A DNA stretch of 32,000 nt, taken from positions 120,001 to 152,000 of the forward strand of contig JBHLKY010000006.1 of the NCBI GenBank assembly GCA_048886185.1, written 5' to 3'. A model generated the notes under the pieces. That model had not been told where the DNA came from, did not search any database, and saw nothing but the letters and a program-made list of their open reading frames with translations. Source of the DNA: Candidatus Hermodarchaeota archaeon (GTDB taxonomy: Archaea > Asgardarchaeota > Heimdallarchaeia > Hodarchaeales > Hodarchaeaceae). Position numbers and translations under genes: made by a program. Positions 5,243 to 30,658 of this stretch are shown one piece after another (position 1 is the stretch's first letter; each line of letters begins with the position of its first letter).

Positions 5243-6487
5243 GTGGATATGTCTATTTTTCGGCGAATATTTCGTATAGATCCTCAACGTGACTTCTCAA
5301 AAGGACGAGAGGCATTTGATCAAGGAATGTATGCTTTGGCTTCTAAAATATTTCAGAAAACTTACAAACAATTTGACACGATCGATATGAAGCTCGTTTC
5401 TCTAGAGAATGCTGCAATTGCCGCAGAATATGCTGATATGTTTGAGAAATCATTAGAGCTGTATTACCAAACTGTTCTCCTAAAATTACAAACAGGCCAA
5501 CCTCCCAAAGAAGTCTTACACGATATTGATAAAGCTATAAATATGGCACGACAAAGCGAAAAATCCTCTTTTCCTATTAATAGACTTTTCTTTATGAAAT
5601 TCTTAATATTACTCTCTGAAAAAGATTTTGATCAGTTAGCATCCTATTATAGAAAATTATCATACGATTTTTCTGACAAATATCAGGATGCTATTGAGAA
5701 AAGTTGGACTTTAATACATTCTACTGAAACGTTTGCGAAAAAAGAATCACTTCCTCAGGTTGACCTTCCAGAAGAATTCTACAGCATTTTAGATGTGGCA
5801 GAGAAAGTTATGCAAAGATGTTCATTATGTGAAATCAGTTTAAGCATTATTGATCAACCCGAGAATATTCAAAAGGGTACTAGTTTTTCAATATCGGCAA
5901 CACTGACCTCACATTCAAATTTATCCATAAAAACGATTAATCTCAAAACAGGAACACGAGGTAGGATTTTAAATTCATCAACGCCTAATCTTCCATTAAA
6001 AATGAGCACAGGTGAAAATTATTCTATTATATTCACTTTAATTCCCAATTTACCTGGGGAGTGGTTGTTAGGTCCATTATCTTTAACTTATTCCATCCCA
6101 TCAGAATCAGGGAAATTTCCTGTAACATCGGAACCAATATCGCTGATGGTTAAAGATGCAGAGCCTGCCTTGAAATTAACAATGGACTCAAAAACTATAG
6201 AAGAAGATCACGAATATATAATAACAATTTCAGTTGAGAATGTTGGAAAAACGTCCCTTCAAAATATTAAAATAATTTCAGACATTCCTGAAGGCATTAA
6301 AATTCATGAAGGTACAAAAGAGAAATATATTAGTGCTTTAGGAGAAGGAGAGTCATTTCAATACGAAATACTTATTCGCTTCGAACTAGATAAAACTCAT
6401 TTTTCAGGGTATATAGTTAAAGCAAATGGATTCATTGAGGATAATCAAAGATTAGCCAAATGCTCTATCAAACTTGGAGGGAGGTAA
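5243..6487 (+). CDS. Cytosolic TPR/alpha-solenoid protein with two C-terminal Ig-like beta-sandwich domains
   Basis: The N-terminal ~190 aa are helical with TPR-like repeats (KGREAFDQGMYALASKIF; ENAAIAAEYADMFEKSLELY). They are followed by two Ig-like units (FSISATLTSHS...FTLIPNLPGEWLLGPLSLTY; ITISVENVGKTSLQNIKIISDIPEG). No signal peptide or TM segment. Confidence 0.7.
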   Translation: MDMSIFRRIFRIDPQRDFSKGREAFDQGMYALASKIFQKTYKQFDTIDMKLVSLENAAIAAEYADMFEKSLELYYQTVLLKLQTGQPPKEVLHDIDKAINMARQSEKSSFPINRLFFMKFLILLSEKDFDQLASYYRKLSYDFSDKYQDAIEKSWTLIHSTETFAKKESLPQVDLPEEFYSILDVAEKVMQRCSLCEISLSIIDQPENIQKGTSFSISATLTSHSNLSIKTINLKTGTRGRILNSSTPNLPLKMSTGENYSIIFTLIPNLPGEWLLGPLSLTYSIPSESGKFPVTSEPISLMVKDAEPALKLTMDSKTIEEDHEYIITISVENVGKTSLQNIKIISDIPEGIKIHEGTKEKYISALGEGESFQYEILIRFELDKTHFSGYIVKANGFIEDNQRLAKCSIKLGGR

Positions 6488-6614: not shown

Positions 6615-8792
6615 TCAGCCTGATCGAAGGCCAAGTCTAGCAATAAACGTGGAATAAAAGTCAAAGCAGTCAACTGATTCTTTTTCATCTAATGTGATCG
6701 AAGAATGAACGATTCTGTTTCTTAAATTCCGAAAATGGGCTATTTTTTTCTCACTGGGGAGATCAAAACCTCTCTTTCGGAGACTAACTACCTGAAATTG
6801 AAAATCAGGTTTTGAATAAATGGAATTTAGCACTAATTGCTGGAATCGAGTGGATAAAAGATTTTTGACTGCTGCATCAGCTTTTATTACAAATAGCTCA
6901 TAGTTGTTTTCTTTAAAAGCATGTTTAGCTTGATTCCACAGAACTCTGACATAATTTATATTTTTTAACGCTTGGTTGGGATCTAAACTCTGACTAATAA
7001 TCTGTTTATGAGATGACTCTGGATAGTTCAGTATGACATAAGAAATCCTATCAACAACCTGACTATAACTAATATATGAAGAGACATTAACAATTAAGAC
7101 AATAATTGTTAGTATCATTGTTGGGACAATTAATACAATAAACAATGCTGTTGAGTTAGGGACATCAAAAGGAAGCAAGTGGATGGAAAAAAGAGAAAAA
7201 CCAAGAAGATTCAGAACATCAAATATAATTAATCCAATTAGAATATATAAAAACCACTCATATTTTCTGTGAAGACGTTTGGAGATTACAAGTGTTTCCT
7301 TTTCGGACGATTCAATGAAATTTAATATCCCAAATGTTTTAAATGGAATGTTTGTTATTGGAATCAAAATGGATGTGTTTGGAACCTCTTTTATTTTGAA
7401 AATTCCCCGAAGACTGTTTCCTAAGATTTTATATATTTCTGGTAATGAAGTTGGAACAGACCACTGATTCATTCGATACCATTTCCCTTTTGAATCTAGA
7501 TATATTAGATATGATGGAATGAAACCTAATAATAGAATGGTTAGGATGATGGAGGGGAAACTCCATACGAATGGTTTGGGCAAACTGTATTCAAAATAAA
7601 TATAGAATTTTCCTACTGCATTCGATAGAGGAGAGACTTTTAAATAGTATTTACCTGCTTCATTCAGTTTTAAGGAGATGTTAAATTGTTTATCAACAAT
7701 CTGATTGTATTCTTCACCAATATAAGGCCGTTCCTGTTTCCCTCCGTCAAAAATTTCGACCGTGGCGTCTTCTAAAATCCTAGCTTCAGCAGAATCTGGC
7801 CCAAATACTCTAATGAAAACATTTGCTCTACTCGAGTTTACCATAAACCAAAAATAAAAGGGTTTCCTAGGAGAAAAGCCTTGATTAACTCGGATTGATA
7901 CAGTTTGGTTAAAAAATAGCTTTCCTGCTGTTTCAAAACTATATAGATCACGCTCAGCAATTAATGATATGTTATATTCACCTACAGATGAAACATCTTG
8001 TGGATTATGTCTGATCACAACGTAATAAGTATCAGTGCTATATGCATTCCAAGAATAGTTCCAATATCCATCTGAACCCGTCCTGAACTTCGTTTGAGGA
8101 TATACAGGGTTTTGGGGGTGTCCCTGTTGATAAATTGCTATTTCAGCATCATAAAGAACACTGGGTTTTGTTTCTTTTAAAATAATGGTTGCATTTTGAT
8201 TGTCGTGTAAGAATGTTTTCCAATACTGGGTCTCATGATCTACAGTAAAATTTCCAACTGAAATTGATTCATCTAGTCCTATTGCAGAAGTTTCATCAAA
8301 CCCAGTCCTTGGCATACTGACCAAAATGTTATAAGAGACATTTCCATTTCCAATATTATTTGTATAGTCTACCTGTAACTTCCAAGTACCTGTAACCGAT
8401 GCTTTCCATACTCCTAAAAACTTAGTAGGATGGATTTGTCTCTCAATCTCAAATTTAGTTCCTGAAGGATTGAATAGCGTCACATTATAATTTAAATCAG
8501 GAGCAATTGAAAAAAAGATAACTTTCCCTTTAGGGATGTTCTCAAGAAACCAATTATGAGACAAAGAAGTATTAGTAAAGAATGCTATTTTAGGAATTCC
8601 GTGGTTGAGAGTAGTCTGATTTAATGAATTACTTATCTTATTATAGAGATCTAATTCCATATCGGAAGTAGAGTTCGTGGGAAGTGGAGGAACCCTTATT
8701 GCTAAAAATATTAAAACCATTCCTACAACGAGGAGTATTTTAAGCTTTTTATTGATGCCATTCATGGGTTTAAATCCGTAGAAAGGGGTCAT
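6615..8792 (-). CDS. Multi-pass membrane protein with extracellular PPC-like repeats and a C-terminal HEPN domain
   Basis: N-terminal signal anchor (~aa 19-35). About three beta-sandwich repeats, each ending G.Y.L.V...G.Y.I, carry 12 N-x-S/T sequons. TMs at ~408-433, ~513-538 and ~549-571. The C-terminal helical domain has AKHAFKENNY and R691-NRIV-H696 (nt 6722-6705). Confidence 0.8.
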   Translation of the reverse strand: MTPFYGFKPMNGINKKLKILLVVGMVLIFLAIRVPPLPTNSTSDMELDLYNKISNSLNQTTLNHGIPKIAFFTNTSLSHNWFLENIPKGKVIFFSIAPDLNYNVTLFNPSGTKFEIERQIHPTKFLGVWKASVTGTWKLQVDYTNNIGNGNVSYNILVSMPRTGFDETSAIGLDESISVGNFTVDHETQYWKTFLHDNQNATIILKETKPSVLYDAEIAIYQQGHPQNPVYPQTKFRTGSDGYWNYSWNAYSTDTYYVVIRHNPQDVSSVGEYNISLIAERDLYSFETAGKLFFNQTVSIRVNQGFSPRKPFYFWFMVNSSRANVFIRVFGPDSAEARILEDATVEIFDGGKQERPYIGEEYNQIVDKQFNISLKLNEAGKYYLKVSPLSNAVGKFYIYFEYSLPKPFVWSFPSIILTILLLGFIPSYLIYLDSKGKWYRMNQWSVPTSLPEIYKILGNSLRGIFKIKEVPNTSILIPITNIPFKTFGILNFIESSEKETLVISKRLHRKYEWFLYILIGLIIFDVLNLLGFSLFSIHLLPFDVPNSTALFIVLIVPTMILTIIVLIVNVSSYISYSQVVDRISYVILNYPESSHKQIISQSLDPNQALKNINYVRVLWNQAKHAFKENNYELFVIKADAAVKNLLSTRFQQLVLNSIYSKPDFQFQVVSLRKRGFDLPSEKKIAHFRNLRNRIVHSSITLDEKESVDCFDFYSTFIARLGLRSG

Positions 8793-9063: not shown

Positions 9064-9705
9064 TTGAGTCGAAACGTTCGGATCTTCAAGAAAAGACTTC
9101 AAATTGCTCAAAAGAAATGGAATACAGTTCAAGGCCATTCATTGAGAACTGTAAACAGTATTTTAACCATCCTATCAAGATTAAATTTGATTCAACGTCC
9201 TGACGCTTTTTCTAAAACATTATTAACAAAATTTAATGACATTCCAGAAAGATTAGCCTATCATCTTGCAGAATTAATGAATAAAAGTATAATTGACCTT
9301 TTTTCTTATATTGATCAGTTTGCTGATATTGTTCGCGAAATGAGGAAAATAGAGGAACAATTTCGTTTGGATTTTTCTATAATGGCAAAGAAGCAAGTCG
9401 TTGGAGGAGCTGACGCTTGGCCTCATGATCTTGAGATAATAGATCAAGCTGAAAGAACTATTCAGGAAATTGTCGATATGTACGAGACTGAACTTACATT
9501 AAGAAAGCAATTAATAAAAGAAATTCAAGATTCCATTTCACTACAACCACCATTAATTACTGTTTACCTGATTCTCTGGACATCAGAAGTCTACATTGAA
9601 ATCAACCGAATTCATGAACTTATTGAGGAATTCACTCATGTTGAAAAAGTTTGTGAGAGGGTATTCCAGCAAGATTCATATAATTCAGTCACGAGATCAC
9701 GATAG
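9064..9705 (+). CDS. Helical protein resembling eukaryotic CINP / C1orf109 (AIRIM)
   Basis: Motifs KKW19NT, F57NDIPERL, AWP, DM139YETELTLRKQLIKEI and VYLILW172TSEVYIE align by eye with recalled CINP/C1orf109 motifs. TTG start. Confidence 0.65.
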   Translation: MSRNVRIFKKRLQIAQKKWNTVQGHSLRTVNSILTILSRLNLIQRPDAFSKTLLTKFNDIPERLAYHLAELMNKSIIDLFSYIDQFADIVREMRKIEEQFRLDFSIMAKKQVVGGADAWPHDLEIIDQAERTIQEIVDMYETELTLRKQLIKEIQDSISLQPPLITVYLILWTSEVYIEINRIHELIEEFTHVEKVCERVFQQDSYNSVTRSR

Positions 9706-9744: not shown

Positions 9745-11196
9745 TCAACTAGCATGAAAATTAGCAACCTTCAAGATACTATTAACTGAACCATCATTAA
9801 ATTTCTTTACTAAGAGGCCTTGAATCTTGTCATTAACCGCGTATTCAGGCTCACCATTATCTAAAAACTGTTTCACTAAACTTAGGGATGCCATTAAATC
9901 ATTACGAGCATTTTTTTCAAAACCAGCAGCACAAATTGCCACACCTCGCAATTGAGAGTTATTAGGGCCAGTTTGGGATGCAAAGACACATCTTTTATCT
10001 CCTGCAGTTAAATGATCTGGTGTATGACCAATTAAATCAAAACTCATTGATTGTATTGCAGAAAAAAGCCCTGTGTAGAGACATACTTCCTGTCCTGCTG
10101 GACGGTGACTTGCGAAGAGGGGAAGACCCCCGTCATCGAAAATATAAATCTCTGAATTAGAAAAAATCTGATTCAATACTCTAAATCTCTCATCTTCCTC
10201 TGATGTTTCAGAAAACACAGTATTTGTTTTTTTAGAATTTTGAGAGGGACCAGCTTCACGGGAGGCAAGTGTTGGTACTACAGAAGTTAAAAAATCTGTT
10301 GACGCTGAATAGGGTATGACACTTTCTATTGGTTGATAATCTGTCAGAATAAAAACGATATTGTACCCAGACACGCGAGAATCAGTCACGTTTGAGAAAA
10401 ATATTTCAAATTCTTTACCAAAGGTTTTTGTAATCAATTCGGAAACATCATTCATCGTTTTGAGACTAAGGGGCTTTTTTGAGGTTATGGATAAAAATAC
10501 AACTTGGAGGTTTTCGAGCTTTTCGGGCATTGTAGTAACTAACTTTTCACCAACTTGATCAATAGAGCCCCCAATTGCACTATTCAAGTCCTTGGAAGAA
10601 GAAATCCCATAAACCATGCTTTGAGAATCGCCAAAAATTCGAATTAAGTTTGAGAATGAAATTCCAAATTCAGAGGATGGGGCGAGGCTTGATATTATAC
10701 TTTCAAAAAAGATTAAGAAATCCCAACGACCCTTATTATTAGAACAATCAAAATGAAAATAACATTCACCAAATAATTCTCTTTGATCATTTGATAATCC
10801 CTTCCCAGTATCAATAAACAAAGGAATGGAGCCAGAAAACTCGATGGATGCTAATATAGCACCCATAATTTTGAAAATTCCCTCTTCTGAAGAATTAAAT
10901 ATAAATAGTAGAAAGAACGAGTTAAGAAGACTATATATTTTTGGAATCATTGTTTCGGAGTTAAAAATGACTACTTGATCACACATATCATTTTTTACGG
11001 TAGTACTAGTAGTTAATAACAGTTGAGGAAGACGAGCTTCATTTTTTAATGCTAAATACTCATTGATAATTTCTAATTCAGTTGTTAAATCTTCTCCAAT
11101 ACAAACTATTTTTCCACGAGGTCGAAAATATTCCAAGATTGAATTTTTTTCAGATTGGGAGCTCAATGCTGATTTCTCTTTCGTTTTATGGGTCAA
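9745..11196 (-). CDS. Degenerate FtsZ/tubulin-like protein fused to a C-terminal longin-like domain
   Basis: aa ~27-287 follow the FtsZ secondary-structure order, and the FtsZ C-terminal domain is clear (VFLSITSKKPLSLKTMNDVSELITKTFGKEFEIFFSNVTDSRVSGYNIVFILTD). The GGGTG and NxDFAD motifs are lost. aa 350-483 (IYIFDDGGLPLF...YTGLFSAIQSMSFDLIG...GDKRCVF) are longin/profilin-like. Confidence 0.7.
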   Translation of the reverse strand: MTHKTKEKSALSSQSEKNSILEYFRPRGKIVCIGEDLTTELEIINEYLALKNEARLPQLLLTTSTTVKNDMCDQVVIFNSETMIPKIYSLLNSFFLLFIFNSSEEGIFKIMGAILASIEFSGSIPLFIDTGKGLSNDQRELFGECYFHFDCSNNKGRWDFLIFFESIISSLAPSSEFGISFSNLIRIFGDSQSMVYGISSSKDLNSAIGGSIDQVGEKLVTTMPEKLENLQVVFLSITSKKPLSLKTMNDVSELITKTFGKEFEIFFSNVTDSRVSGYNIVFILTDYQPIESVIPYSASTDFLTSVVPTLASREAGPSQNSKKTNTVFSETSEEDERFRVLNQIFSNSEIYIFDDGGLPLFASHRPAGQEVCLYTGLFSAIQSMSFDLIGHTPDHLTAGDKRCVFASQTGPNNSQLRGVAICAAGFEKNARNDLMASLSLVKQFLDNGEPEYAVNDKIQGLLVKKFNDGSVNSILKVANFHAS

Positions 11197-23239: not shown

Positions 23240-23713
23240 TTAAAAATTTTCCAGTTCTTTTAATGCTGCCATAATTGATTGAGATTCTGGTTTCTTTATC
23301 TTAACAGCAGAGGGTTCTGAGATTTTATCCATGAGCGCGGCCAAAGACTCAGACGATTCTTTCATCCGTACACGAATTAGTCCTAGCTGGGCATCAGATT
23401 CGGCCACGACAACGAGAACCCCTCGTTCACCACTTTGTGCAGTAAGAATCTTCCCATCACTAAATTCAGCAAGCATTATTCCTAGCTCCCCTAATGTAAG
23501 AGCACTCCCTTGTTCCGCGGCACCACAAAATACAGCAGAGGCTATTGCTCCAATGCTTTCAAGATCAAAGGCTCCCATAGTTTCTGATACAAGGAGTCTA
23601 GATGCTCGTGCTATTGTCAACCCAGTTCTATCACCCAAGAGAGTGACTTTAATAGAAGTATCGCTTTTTAATAACCTTGTAAGCTCCCTGTGTATTTCGT
23701 CTCTTTGCACCAT
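23240..23713 (-). CDS. Roadblock/LC7 (MglB-like) protein
   Basis: LLGDRTGLTIA...IGAIASAVFCGAAEQGSALTLGELGIMLAEFSDGKIL...LGLIRVRMK. Confidence 0.88.
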   Translation of the reverse strand: MVQRDEIHRELTRLLKSDTSIKVTLLGDRTGLTIARASRLLVSETMGAFDLESIGAIASAVFCGAAEQGSALTLGELGIMLAEFSDGKILTAQSGERGVLVVVAESDAQLGLIRVRMKESSESLAALMDKISEPSAVKIKKPESQSIMAALKELENF

Positions 23714-23841: not shown

Positions 23842-24561
23842 TTAAAGAATAACAATTACTATAACTAAAGCAATCACTGATCCTGCTAACAAGGCTAACA
23901 AAGTTCTGTTTTGTGTTAACTTTCGTGATATTTTCCCCAATGTAGATTGAACTTTTTGTAGTTTTGAGTCGACTTCAGTGATTTTCTCATCTATCTTATC
24001 TATCTTGACTCCCTGTTCATCAAGTCTTTTAGTTAATGTTGTCAAATTCTGAGATATTTGATTCAACTGGGCGTTCATTTGATCCATTGATGTTAAAAAA
24101 GAATTCTCTAAAATTTGAAGGCGTTCTTCCAATGTCCCAACATTTTGAGATGAAATCGCTTCACCAGGGTAAGCTAACTCATAAATACGATTTCCCATTT
24201 CATCACTTGCAGGTGGTGCAGCTTGCAGATCCATGGATTCTATAGATTCACCTATACTAGCTAATGTTCCCCGTAAAAATTGCATTTTACGTTTTGTCTC
24301 TTTTATTTCTGTTACTTTCTCGTTTTGTTTACGAACGTGGCTTGGTTGAAGAAATGTGGGCATTGATGCTAAAACTTTGGCCGATAATGATCGTTTCTTC
24401 ATAACTTGCTCTGAATAGCCCCCAGAAATATCATCCGCCATTTCTTCCATTGATTCTAGAACTGACTCCAAATCATGGATGAATCCAACAATGAGTTCCT
24501 TTTCACTTGGTTCTTCAGTCTTTTTAAACCATTTTCCTAGTTTTTTTGTTATAACAGACAC
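23842..24561 (-). CDS. Tail-anchored Q-SNARE-like protein
   Basis: Hydrophobic residues at all layers -7..+8 around Gln183 (RLDEQGVKIDKI), followed directly by a C-terminal TM helix with no luminal tail. Helical N-terminal region. GTG start with GGAGA upstream. Confidence 0.75.
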   Translation of the reverse strand: MSVITKKLGKWFKKTEEPSEKELIVGFIHDLESVLESMEEMADDISGGYSEQVMKKRSLSAKVLASMPTFLQPSHVRKQNEKVTEIKETKRKMQFLRGTLASIGESIESMDLQAAPPASDEMGNRIYELAYPGEAISSQNVGTLEERLQILENSFLTSMDQMNAQLNQISQNLTTLTKRLDEQGVKIDKIDEKITEVDSKLQKVQSTLGKISRKLTQNRTLLALLAGSVIALVIVIVIL

Positions 24562-29950: not shown

Positions 29951-30658
29951 TTATCCTTTTCGTAGTTCAGAAATTAGGATATCACGAATGACCATTTGAA
30001 TAGGCTGAATGATACGTTGAACAGGTTGAGGCCGAAGTTTAGGATTCCACTCACCTTTACCCCAAGCCTCTTTTAAGGCAACTAATGCCTCTAAACAACT
30101 AACTTCGAAGGTACTAGCGAAGGTATCACGTAATTTATCAGAAATGCCTGCTTCTAACATTAACTTGCCAACATCCGCAGCACTGATTCGTGTATCGGCA
30201 GGTAGATCCATCTTATTAAGCATAATAGCCATCTTAACCTCACGATTATAGAGCTTTTCGCCTAATATTTGAAAAAGTTCAGTAAGACTATCTTTATTCT
30301 CCTCCCAACGGGCTTTCTCAGAATCAATAACCACAATAAGACCATGGAGCCCATTGACAACAATTTTTCGCATAGATTTAAAACGATCTTGCCCTGGCGT
30401 AGTAAAAAGATGATACTTGAATCCCTTTCCTGGGCCGGTACCCAAGCCAAATGTTGCTTGATCAAAACCAATCGTTCGTTCAGTTGCTTTATCCTCGAGT
30501 TTCAAAAACTGATAAACGCTTTCAGGGTCCTCTTTTTTCTTAATAGCATGAAATAAGCTCAATGCAGTAGTTTTTCCAGCTAATGTAGGGCCCCAAAAAA
30601 CAATCTTAATACCTTTTTGAGCCTCTTCAAAAACAAGTTCTTCTTCTTGACTCAACAA
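29951..30658 (-). CDS. Small GTPase, MglA-like
   Basis: G1 GPTLAGKTT, G2 ERTIGFD (intrinsic Arg), G3 TTPGQ lacking Asp as in MglA TVPGQ, G4 NKMD. Confidence 0.85.
   Translation of the reverse strand: MLSQEEELVFEEAQKGIKIVFWGPTLAGKTTALSLFHAIKKKEDPESVYQFLKLEDKATERTIGFDQATFGLGTGPGKGFKYHLFTTPGQDRFKSMRKIVVNGLHGLIVVIDSEKARWEENKDSLTELFQILGEKLYNREVKMAIMLNKMDLPADTRISAADVGKLMLEAGISDKLRDTFASTFEVSCLEALVALKEAWGKGEWNPKLRPQPVQRIIQPIQMVIRDILISELRKG

Follow-up and report, generated by a model that had tools for sequence, protein, structure and literature searches.

The locus described here raises the question of what a protein that is predicted to have kept the fold of FtsZ can still do when the loops that would bind GTP have been replaced and a longin-type domain has been added. 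The gene in question lies in a 32,000-nucleotide stretch of DNA (hereafter the window, that is, positions 120,001 to 152,000 of contig JBHLKY010000006.1, assembly GCA_048886185.1) from Candidatus Hermodarchaeota archaeon, a member of the Hodarchaeales (Hodarchaeaceae in GTDB). It occupies an uninterrupted open reading frame of 483 codons on the minus strand (window positions 9745–11196, opening at a TTG at 11196), and all residue numbers below refer to the 483-residue translation counted from that codon; the features described within the gene are likewise on the minus strand. Our best explanation as a whole, to which we assign a rough probability of 0.5, is that its product is a cytoplasmic protein of two domains, descended from an FtsZ–longin fusion, and that it regulates the FtsZ system or serves it as an adaptor.

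A predicted FtsZ fold with replaced GTPase loops

For the N-terminal ~270 residues of the protein (residues 23–290, positions 10327–11130), structure prediction gives an entire FtsZ fold, made up of the two subdomains and, at the core, helix H7. In an AlphaFold2 model built from a 34-sequence alignment, the predicted local distance difference test (pLDDT) score is mostly 85–95 over residues 25–290, and the order of secondary-structure elements assigned by DSSP is that of FtsZ (S1-H1 ... H7-H8-S7-H9-S8-H10-S9-S10). All 50 matches listed by Foldseek against the PDB are FtsZ chains (best E value, 2.5e-12), and VIA-align places model residues 25–287 on FtsZ residues 8–312 with a Z score of 20.5 and a root-mean-square deviation of 3.2 Å over 251 aligned residues, which bears out an earlier note, made from the sequence alone, that had proposed an FtsZ/tubulin fold for this half. 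Compared with FtsZ (PDB 2q1x and 2vap, and Odinarchaeota FtsZ1, 9v7v), the likeness extends over the whole globular fold (Z, 17.9–20.5) and includes a sequence that remains recognizable from T7 onwards across the C-terminal subdomain, as well as a disordered linker after the core, whereas the residues of T1, T4 and catalytic T7 are replaced and a folded longin domain stands against the short C-terminal peptide of FtsZ.

At the sequence level, homology to FtsZ is limited to the segment from T7 to S10, for which hhalign against an FtsZ alignment gave a probability of 86% (E = 4.8e-6). The single protein sequence reaches FtsZ in the PDB at a sub-threshold E value of 0.048; the family profile matches FtsZ as the sole family there (E = 0.0035) and also retrieves three true FtsZ genes from a different family of Heimdallarchaeia (E ~5e-6). 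Matches to PF12327 (FtsZ_C; 12.7 bits, cut-off 27) and to NCBIfam TIGR00065 (11.5 bits, cut-off 295) are sub-threshold and in the correct register, and PF00091 (Pfam Tubulin), which detects the three true family members of the genome, gave no match to the protein. By language-model features and by structure (template modelling (TM) score, 0.74–0.78), the clusters that come closest are short bacterial FtsZ_C-only proteins (ESM Atlas clusters; for example, P0084), which likewise combine the FtsZ fold with an N-terminal subdomain that has degenerated; unlike the window protein, these uncharacterized proteins have only 220–270 residues and no longin domain, and P0084 has an intact T7.

The loops on which FtsZ depends are the part of the fold that has changed. 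Using an alignment bridged by intermediate relatives to fix the loop register, and tallying conservation in 34 relatives, we find that the equivalent of T1 (positions 11080–11103) reads CIGEDLTT where FtsZ has GVGGGGNN: four of the five T1 glycines are replaced, G34 is the sole glycine kept (33 of 34 relatives) and the glycine-rich signature GxGGxGxN is absent. In the equivalent of T4 (positions 10879–10896), the tubulin signature GGGTG[ST]G, GGGTGTG in its FtsZ form, gives way to NSSEEG, with no glycine at the GGG positions and a strict replacement pattern (N in 33, S in 34, S in 34 and E or D in 34 of the 34 sequences). The PFxxEG segment of T5 in canonical FtsZ is shortened. The equivalent of T7 (positions 10648–10665) is GISFSN in place of NLDFAD, so that the synergy motif NxDxxD is lost; nearly every one of the 34 sequences has other residues at the positions of its first Asn and first Asp, and its last position is D in 20, N in 11, S in 2 and V in 1, a variation that indicates no catalytic constraint there. 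The short strings quoted in the earlier note were verified at their residues (KIVCIG, 29–34; NSSEEG, 101–106; GISFSN, 178–183), and its claim that GGGTG and the T7 motif had been replaced by the last two of these is upheld by the alignments and the family tallies. We conclude that the protein is derived from FtsZ and is not itself an FtsZ: the fold is kept, and at every motif and every threshold by which a functional FtsZ is recognized the protein falls short. Canonical GTP binding has very probably been lost.

The region is nevertheless well conserved. Column conservation is highest in S1 (0.90), S4 (0.87) and S5 (0.88), with 0.83 in the T4 equivalent, against a mean of 0.67 for the N-terminal domain, and S102, S103, D73, Q74 and R55 are invariant. 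The conservation of the replacement loops and of the strands that carry them argues that the former pocket, or the top face of the domain, still does something.

A flexible linker and a longin-type domain

The FtsZ-fold domain is followed by a disordered linker of 42 residues (291–332, positions 10201–10326), which has a pLDDT of ~30 and is the least conserved part of the protein (mean, 0.35); at 36% Ser/Thr it is the serine/threonine-rich linker that had been read from the letters. Residues 333–470 (positions 9787–10200) then form a longin/Roadblock-type domain according to a domain model, Foldseek and VIA-align. The earlier note had placed a longin-like domain at residues 350–483; its presence is supported by the fold matches, and its span shifts to a slightly earlier ~333–470.

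Modelled alone, this domain has a pLDDT of 82.7 and the topology α0-β-β-α-β-β-β-α-α, that is, the ββαβββαα sandwich of longin domains (DSSP of the domain model: E16–21, E27–30, H39–57, E63–66, E69–77, E83–91, H95–114 and H119–135) preceded by an extra helix (H2–12). The best Foldseek matches, with E values of 8.6e-5 and weaker, are longin domain 1 of MON1 and of CCZ1, MglB and Asgard Roadblock proteins. VIA-align gave Z scores of 10.2 for MON1A–CCZ1, 9.4 for BLOC-3, 8.9 for TRAPP, 8.6 for Roadblock3 of Prometheoarchaeum and 7.9 for the longin domain of VAMP7; for MglB and Asgard Roadblock proteins the range is 8.0–8.6, with the N-terminal helix present. In this exhaustive search, entries with Z above 7 are essentially all longin/Roadblock chains, and profilin and a penicillin-binding protein rank lower. 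An ESM Atlas model compared with clusters of Fuz_longin_1 gave a TM score of 0.63. Sequence methods detect less: Pfam scans of the window's C-terminal domain returned neither Fuz_longin_1 (PF19036) nor PF03259, the distant relative P0069 matches Fuz_longin_1 below the cut-off (E = 0.0019, 18.9 bits, cut-off 26.1) and the domain profile weakly matches a dynein Roadblock protein in the PDB (E = 0.12).

The fold and topology are thus those of the platforms formed by MON1–CCZ1, longin domain 1 of Fuzzy–Inturned, MglB and the Asgard Roadblock/longin proteins (PDB 9lol, 5ldd, 6hjm, 9jue and 8yqg; Z, 8–10), a likeness of predicted fold. Asgard genomes often carry such domains fused to other modules (Tran et al. 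2024, PMC10933270); the partners described are Ras-superfamily GTPases or TRAPPC3, whereas here the partner is an FtsZ-family domain. Conservation within the protein also peaks in this domain (mean, 0.82, versus 0.67 for the N-terminal domain). Behind it, a tail of variable sequence with pLDDT below 50 (positions 9748–9786) closes on [F/Y]-[H/Q]-A-S, of which A482 and S483 are invariant in 34 of 34 relatives; judging by its sequence, this end may be a C-terminal docking motif.

Relatives and origin of the fusion

A word-indexed search of 5.8 billion proteins returned 68 homologs, nearly all full length (~460–480 residues) and of one architecture, from NCBI, ENA, JGI and Logan assemblies with contigs of up to 4.9 Mb. 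None of them carries a precomputed Pfam domain, and those with names are labelled as Hodarchaeales or Heimdallarchaeota metagenome-assembled genomes (MAGs). Searched with the family profile, 22 of 22 genomes of the GTDB family hold exactly one uninterrupted full-length copy, and the other 59 Heimdallarchaeia genomes searched hold none; single-contig genome records are among those bearing a copy, and no genome match has an internal stop. The complete stretch was also found in contigs of four runs, possibly the source sample, and no RNA dataset is among the listed carriers. The fusion therefore recurs in other Asgard genomes, to an extent that coincidence could not account for, and the concern that it might be an assembly chimera is ruled out by relatives that have the same architecture across independent assemblies.

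The origin of this architecture is indicated by a second group of proteins. When 1.84 billion representatives were searched exhaustively with a hidden Markov model (HMM), no more than 18 proteins were retrieved, among them P0075, a bona fide FtsZ (Pfam Tubulin, 3.9e-40; FtsZ_C, 1.5e-19) with intact GGGGNN, GGGTGTG and NLDYSD motifs and the same C-terminal domain. A targeted search extended these canonical FtsZ–longin fusions to P0075, P0090–P0095 and P0099, which have 571–577 residues when complete and come from Hodarchaeales-labelled MAGs; some (for example, NCBI MFX0113186.1 and MHA2499386.1) are annotated merely as 'cell division protein FtsZ', and none was found among GTDB species representatives with the queries used. 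They share with the window protein an FtsZ-fold domain, a disordered linker, the same longin-type domain and the A-S end, and differ in keeping GGGGNN, GGGTGTG and NLD(F/Y)SD, in passing Pfam Tubulin and FtsZ_C, in being ~100 residues longer and in their gene context. The C-terminal domains of the two groups are 33–36% identical (E = 3.9e-16), and this specific domain was detected in every one of the order's 24 genomes, the 376 other Asgard genomes searched giving no match. As the same C-terminal domain is fused to a motif-intact FtsZ in related MAGs, the window protein is most likely a degenerate descendant of such a fusion, and we regard its architecture and this descent as highly probable; the earlier note had not recognized this relation to canonical fusions. 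The assemblies examined for the canonical and for the degenerate forms differ, and cluster records showed no locus tags in common. A maximum-likelihood tree places the FtsZ portions of these fusions as the sister group of the FtsZ proper of the window's own family (support, 98/95). The simplest history would be that an FtsZ duplicate gained the longin domain within this lineage and that one of its descendants then lost GTP binding.

In three canonical loci (fusions at L027, 7807–9522; L028, 7907–9640; and L041, 5001–6728), the linker carries a conserved basic stretch, KKGI(L/I)AGLKAKI(S/T)RKN, which, from its sequence, looks like an amphipathic membrane-binding helix.

Degeneration appears to have gone further elsewhere. 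P0078, P0079, P0081 and P0083 (479–515 residues) have the same C-terminal domain and N-terminal domains that are still more degenerate. P0083 lies on a contig of the sister-family genome G023, beside an ArcS-like gene, a radical SAM gene, DnaJ and Hsp70; as it adjoins the same neighbours as the window's gene, it is a positional ortholog, the sequence of which has changed so far that it is barely recognizable. A copy of the P0079 type is present in genome G022. The A-S end is common to the canonical fusions, P0081 and P0083; in P0077, P0078 and P0080 the last two residues are A-F or A-Y, and an end of the A-S type is absent from the P0079/G022 type.

With these relatives in hand, the possibility that the gene is an artefact (that is, an assembly chimera, a miscalled frame or a decaying pseudogene) is practically negligible. 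The TTG start is its sole weak point and nothing else speaks for such an origin, whereas the 68 homologs of the same architecture, the megabase contigs and single-contig genomes, the lack of internal stops and the strong column conservation all speak against it, and the existence of a fast-diverged positional ortholog in the sister family means that the gene is no chimera.

Two other ideas about origin did not hold. The motif-degenerate protein is no substitute for a lost second FtsZ: of the 51 Heimdallarchaeia genomes with a completeness of 85% or more, 46 contain just one FtsZ_C match, with or without the gene, and only family f7 has two FtsZ_C-bearing genes. Many other archaea carry an FtsZ1/FtsZ2 pair. 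Nor is the canonical fusion a positional ortholog of the genome's ftsZ, as the contexts differ (PRS2-type AAA/ftsZ/HypB/HypA versus TFB/GTPase/fusion/EamA).

Possible function and its alternatives

FtsZ normally carries a C-terminal peptide that binds its membrane tethers. In the protein studied here, the longin domain would sit on its flexible linker at the site usual for that peptide, and the FtsZ-derived domain would no longer bind GTP or polymerize alone. The FtsZ-like domain is probably unable to bind or hydrolyse GTP as FtsZ does, so that dynamic filaments formed by this protein alone are unlikely; we suggest that it might instead modulate or adapt FtsZ-family polymers or their partners under the control of whatever binds the longin domain, which could act as a regulated docking module, its partner being either a small GTPase or a second protein of longin/Roadblock type. 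As the longin domain is under the strongest constraint, it probably makes the key regulated contact. A role as regulator or adaptor of the FtsZ system is a tentative assignment from this analysis, and the proposal of the earlier note, a non-catalytic adaptor or filament cap that couples the tubulin-family cytoskeleton to GTPase signalling, is likewise conjectural. The GTPase link is suggested by fold precedent (PMC10933270) and by the Rab-like gene beside the canonical FtsZ–longin relatives, and these two make a small GTPase the leading candidate partner of the longin domain, albeit one against which the odds still lean.

That Rab/Ras-like GTPase gene (188–190 residues) lies directly upstream of the fusion, on the same strand, in all three canonical loci whose upstream side is visible, and the versions from two of the MAGs share 89% identity; at L027, where the fusion is P0092, the GTPase gene spans 6620–7186. 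The order there is TFB, Rab-like GTPase, fusion and EamA, with gaps of 256–620 bp between GTPase and fusion. A more elaborate proposal can be built on this arrangement, in which Hodarchaeales would possess a small-GTPase-controlled FtsZ module: a Rab-like GTPase would dock on the longin domain of an FtsZ paralog and recruit or switch FtsZ-family polymers at membranes, and the paralog that no longer handles GTP would be a regulatory or chain-terminating subunit. We consider this full version improbable.

The closest functional analogy, one of architecture only, is plant ARC3, in which FtsZ-like, middle and MORN domains are combined. The FtsZ-like domain of ARC3 is not known to be an FtsZ-type GTPase. 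ARC3, too, pairs an FtsZ-derived domain with a C-terminal interaction domain, and it directly inhibits Z-ring assembly with an activity that is gated by the MORN domain, to which partners bind (PMC12232670). ARC3 differs in its independent origin in the eukaryotic plastid lineage, so that the two are analogous and homologous no further than through FtsZ descent, and no MORN repeats were found in the archaeal protein by Pfam and structure searches, a longin domain taking their place. FtsZ derivatives without GTPase function are already known as a kind, with ARC3 and the bacterial FtsZ_C-only proteins as examples; for an FtsZ–longin fusion, canonical or degenerate, no description was found in the open-access literature searched, which agrees with the earlier note, whose reader knew of none.

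Several observations weigh against an FtsZ-system regulator or adaptor, and some of them favour another reading: a neo-functionalized scaffold that has no tie to FtsZ filaments, the remodelled pocket of which would bind a new ligand or protein and which might be a longin-platform subunit of a small-GTPase regulator (guanine nucleotide exchange factor (GEF)-like or GTPase-activating protein (GAP)-like, as in Mon1–Ccz1 and MglB) or have some other membrane or trafficking role. The kinship of the N-terminal GTPase subdomain with FtsZ is one of predicted structure, without significant sequence similarity, and the former nucleotide pocket, whose strands, loops and five invariant residues are among the best-conserved parts of that domain, would also suit a new role in binding some ligand or partner outside the filament system, which is the principal support for this reading. 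The gene is unlinked to the genome's ftsZ (contig C8, 153944–155287) and to its two tubulin-like genes; the longin domain, more conserved than the FtsZ-like domain, has GEF or GAP subunits as its best structural matches; and no fewer than 37 paralogous small GTPases are encoded in the genome. The evidence for a GTPase partner is also narrower than the counts suggest: the three canonical loci share extended synteny, so the adjacency amounts to one evolutionary observation, and the gaps of 256–620 bp do not point to a tight operon. The window's gene itself has no small-GTPase gene next to it, the nearest being ~18 kb away (a point that counts against a GTPase-regulating scaffold as well), and near the motif-degenerate relatives none adjoins P0083 and those at P0078 and P0081 lie 4.5–5 kb off. 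In the maximum-likelihood tree, the join between the canonical fusions and the family's own FtsZ was flagged as a meeting of long branches. Finally, the function as a whole, including any contact with FtsZ, a tubulin-like protein or any GTPase, is something that we infer; a complex prediction for the family's FtsZ-like domain with the FtsZ core of the genome scored 0.29 against a mark of 0.32 and counts neither way. Against the scaffold, Pfam and NCBIfam scans detected no ligand-binding motif of a known family, and, given descent from a canonical FtsZ–longin fusion, it is simpler to suppose that a tie to the FtsZ system has been kept; we rate the scaffold as somewhat unlikely.

A further reading is that of a nucleotide-dependent, self-assembling filament protein of the FtsZ family with a non-canonical pocket, attached through its longin domain to a membrane or an adaptor. 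The complete fold, with H7 and the C-terminal subdomain, is indeed kept, as is the last Asp of T7 in 20 of 34 relatives, and a phosphate contact made by the strictly conserved NSSE loop is conceivable. Set against this are the replacement of four T1 glycines and of all T4 GGG glycines, the shortened T5, the near-universal loss of the first Asn and first Asp of T7, the failure of PF00091 to match and the inconsistent constraint on the very Asp that would be counted as kept, and we regard such a filament as very unlikely. We retain the FtsZ-system regulator or adaptor as the functional part of our explanation, at the tentative level given above.

Gene model and genomic neighbourhood

Within the open reading frame, a second TTG at 11166 is the likelier start (both candidate starts are TTG), as it agrees with the database copy P0002 (473 residues), with the MSSQ... 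N termini of relatives and with position 1 of the family profile. The most likely coding sequence is thus 9745–11166, that is, 473 residues and a TGA stop. The stretch has a G+C content of ~33% and its remaining genes are typical of Asgard archaea.

Upstream, across a 451-bp spacer from the start at 11166, lies a divergent ArcS-like tRNA-modification gene (DUF5591, TGT_C2 and PUA); 39 bp downstream, in convergent orientation, lies a C1orf109-like gene (positions 9064–9705, plus strand, 213 residues). The gene order is kept in 12 of 12 family loci and in L043 and L044, with relatives down to 48% identity. As the orientations of the neighbours argue against co-transcription, we draw no functional conclusion from this context. 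The C1orf109-like protein matches the Pfam family CA109-like above its cut-off (E = 6.4e-12, 46 bits, cut-off 27 bits), and its gene is kept in all 14 f1-type loci examined and is not in the sister-family locus. C1orf109 is a subunit of the eukaryotic SPATA5/55LCC complex of pre-60S maturation. The C1orf109-like gene may encode an unreported eukaryotic signature protein.

Candidate partners encoded elsewhere in the genome gave no lead from their surroundings. The best homolog in this genome (66%) of the GTPase next to the canonical fusions has an unrelated context and was set aside, and the context of a standalone longin paralog of 145 residues (L005), inspected as another candidate, was uninformative. 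The genome also has a Rab-like gene at G000 contig C2, 105676–106233.

Other genes of the window and the genome are recorded here as observations in their own right. A Roadblock/LC7 protein (positions 23240–23713, minus strand; E = 7e-7) lies beside a coiled-coil protein (23842–24561, minus strand) with a weak C-terminal match to a SNARE domain (E = 2.8e-4), and an Arf/Ras-like small GTPase (29951–30658, minus strand) follows 6 kb beyond this pair; these are genes of trafficking type, none of them adjacent to the FtsZ–longin gene. A protein of 414 residues (5243–6487, plus strand) has a sub-threshold match to the HEAT repeats of Nup120 (E = 4.1e-6, 27.2 bits, cut-off 29), which probably reflects a generic helical repeat only. 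The two tubulin-like paralogs of the genome (G000 contig C10, 12996–14330, or locus L002, 1474–2808; and contig C6, 79238–80602, or locus L003, 649–2013, minus strand) have 444 and 454 residues and the signature GGGTGCGG. Immediately upstream of both, in the same orientation, stands a gene for a protein of 426–484 residues that is apparently homologous between the loci, and the arrangement looks like a duplicated two-gene cassette of the tubulin family.

Implications

FtsZ/tubulin polymers, and small GTPases with their longin/Roadblock platforms, are two eukaryote-like hallmarks of Asgard cells that have so far been studied separately, and the lineage concerned is placed near the eukaryotes in published phylogenies (as cited in PMC12583498, which also cites a Hodarchaeales culture). 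If the coupling that we propose is wrong, what remains is a lineage-specific scaffold; in either case the family offers a clean natural case of a pseudo-enzyme derived from a cytomotive filament protein. The FtsZ–longin family as a whole provides a testable handle on the coupling of cytoskeleton and GTPase signalling before eukaryotes, and, if the GTPase-controlled FtsZ module were true, it would constitute a prokaryotic precedent for Ras-superfamily switches that steer the cytoskeleton through longin-type platforms.

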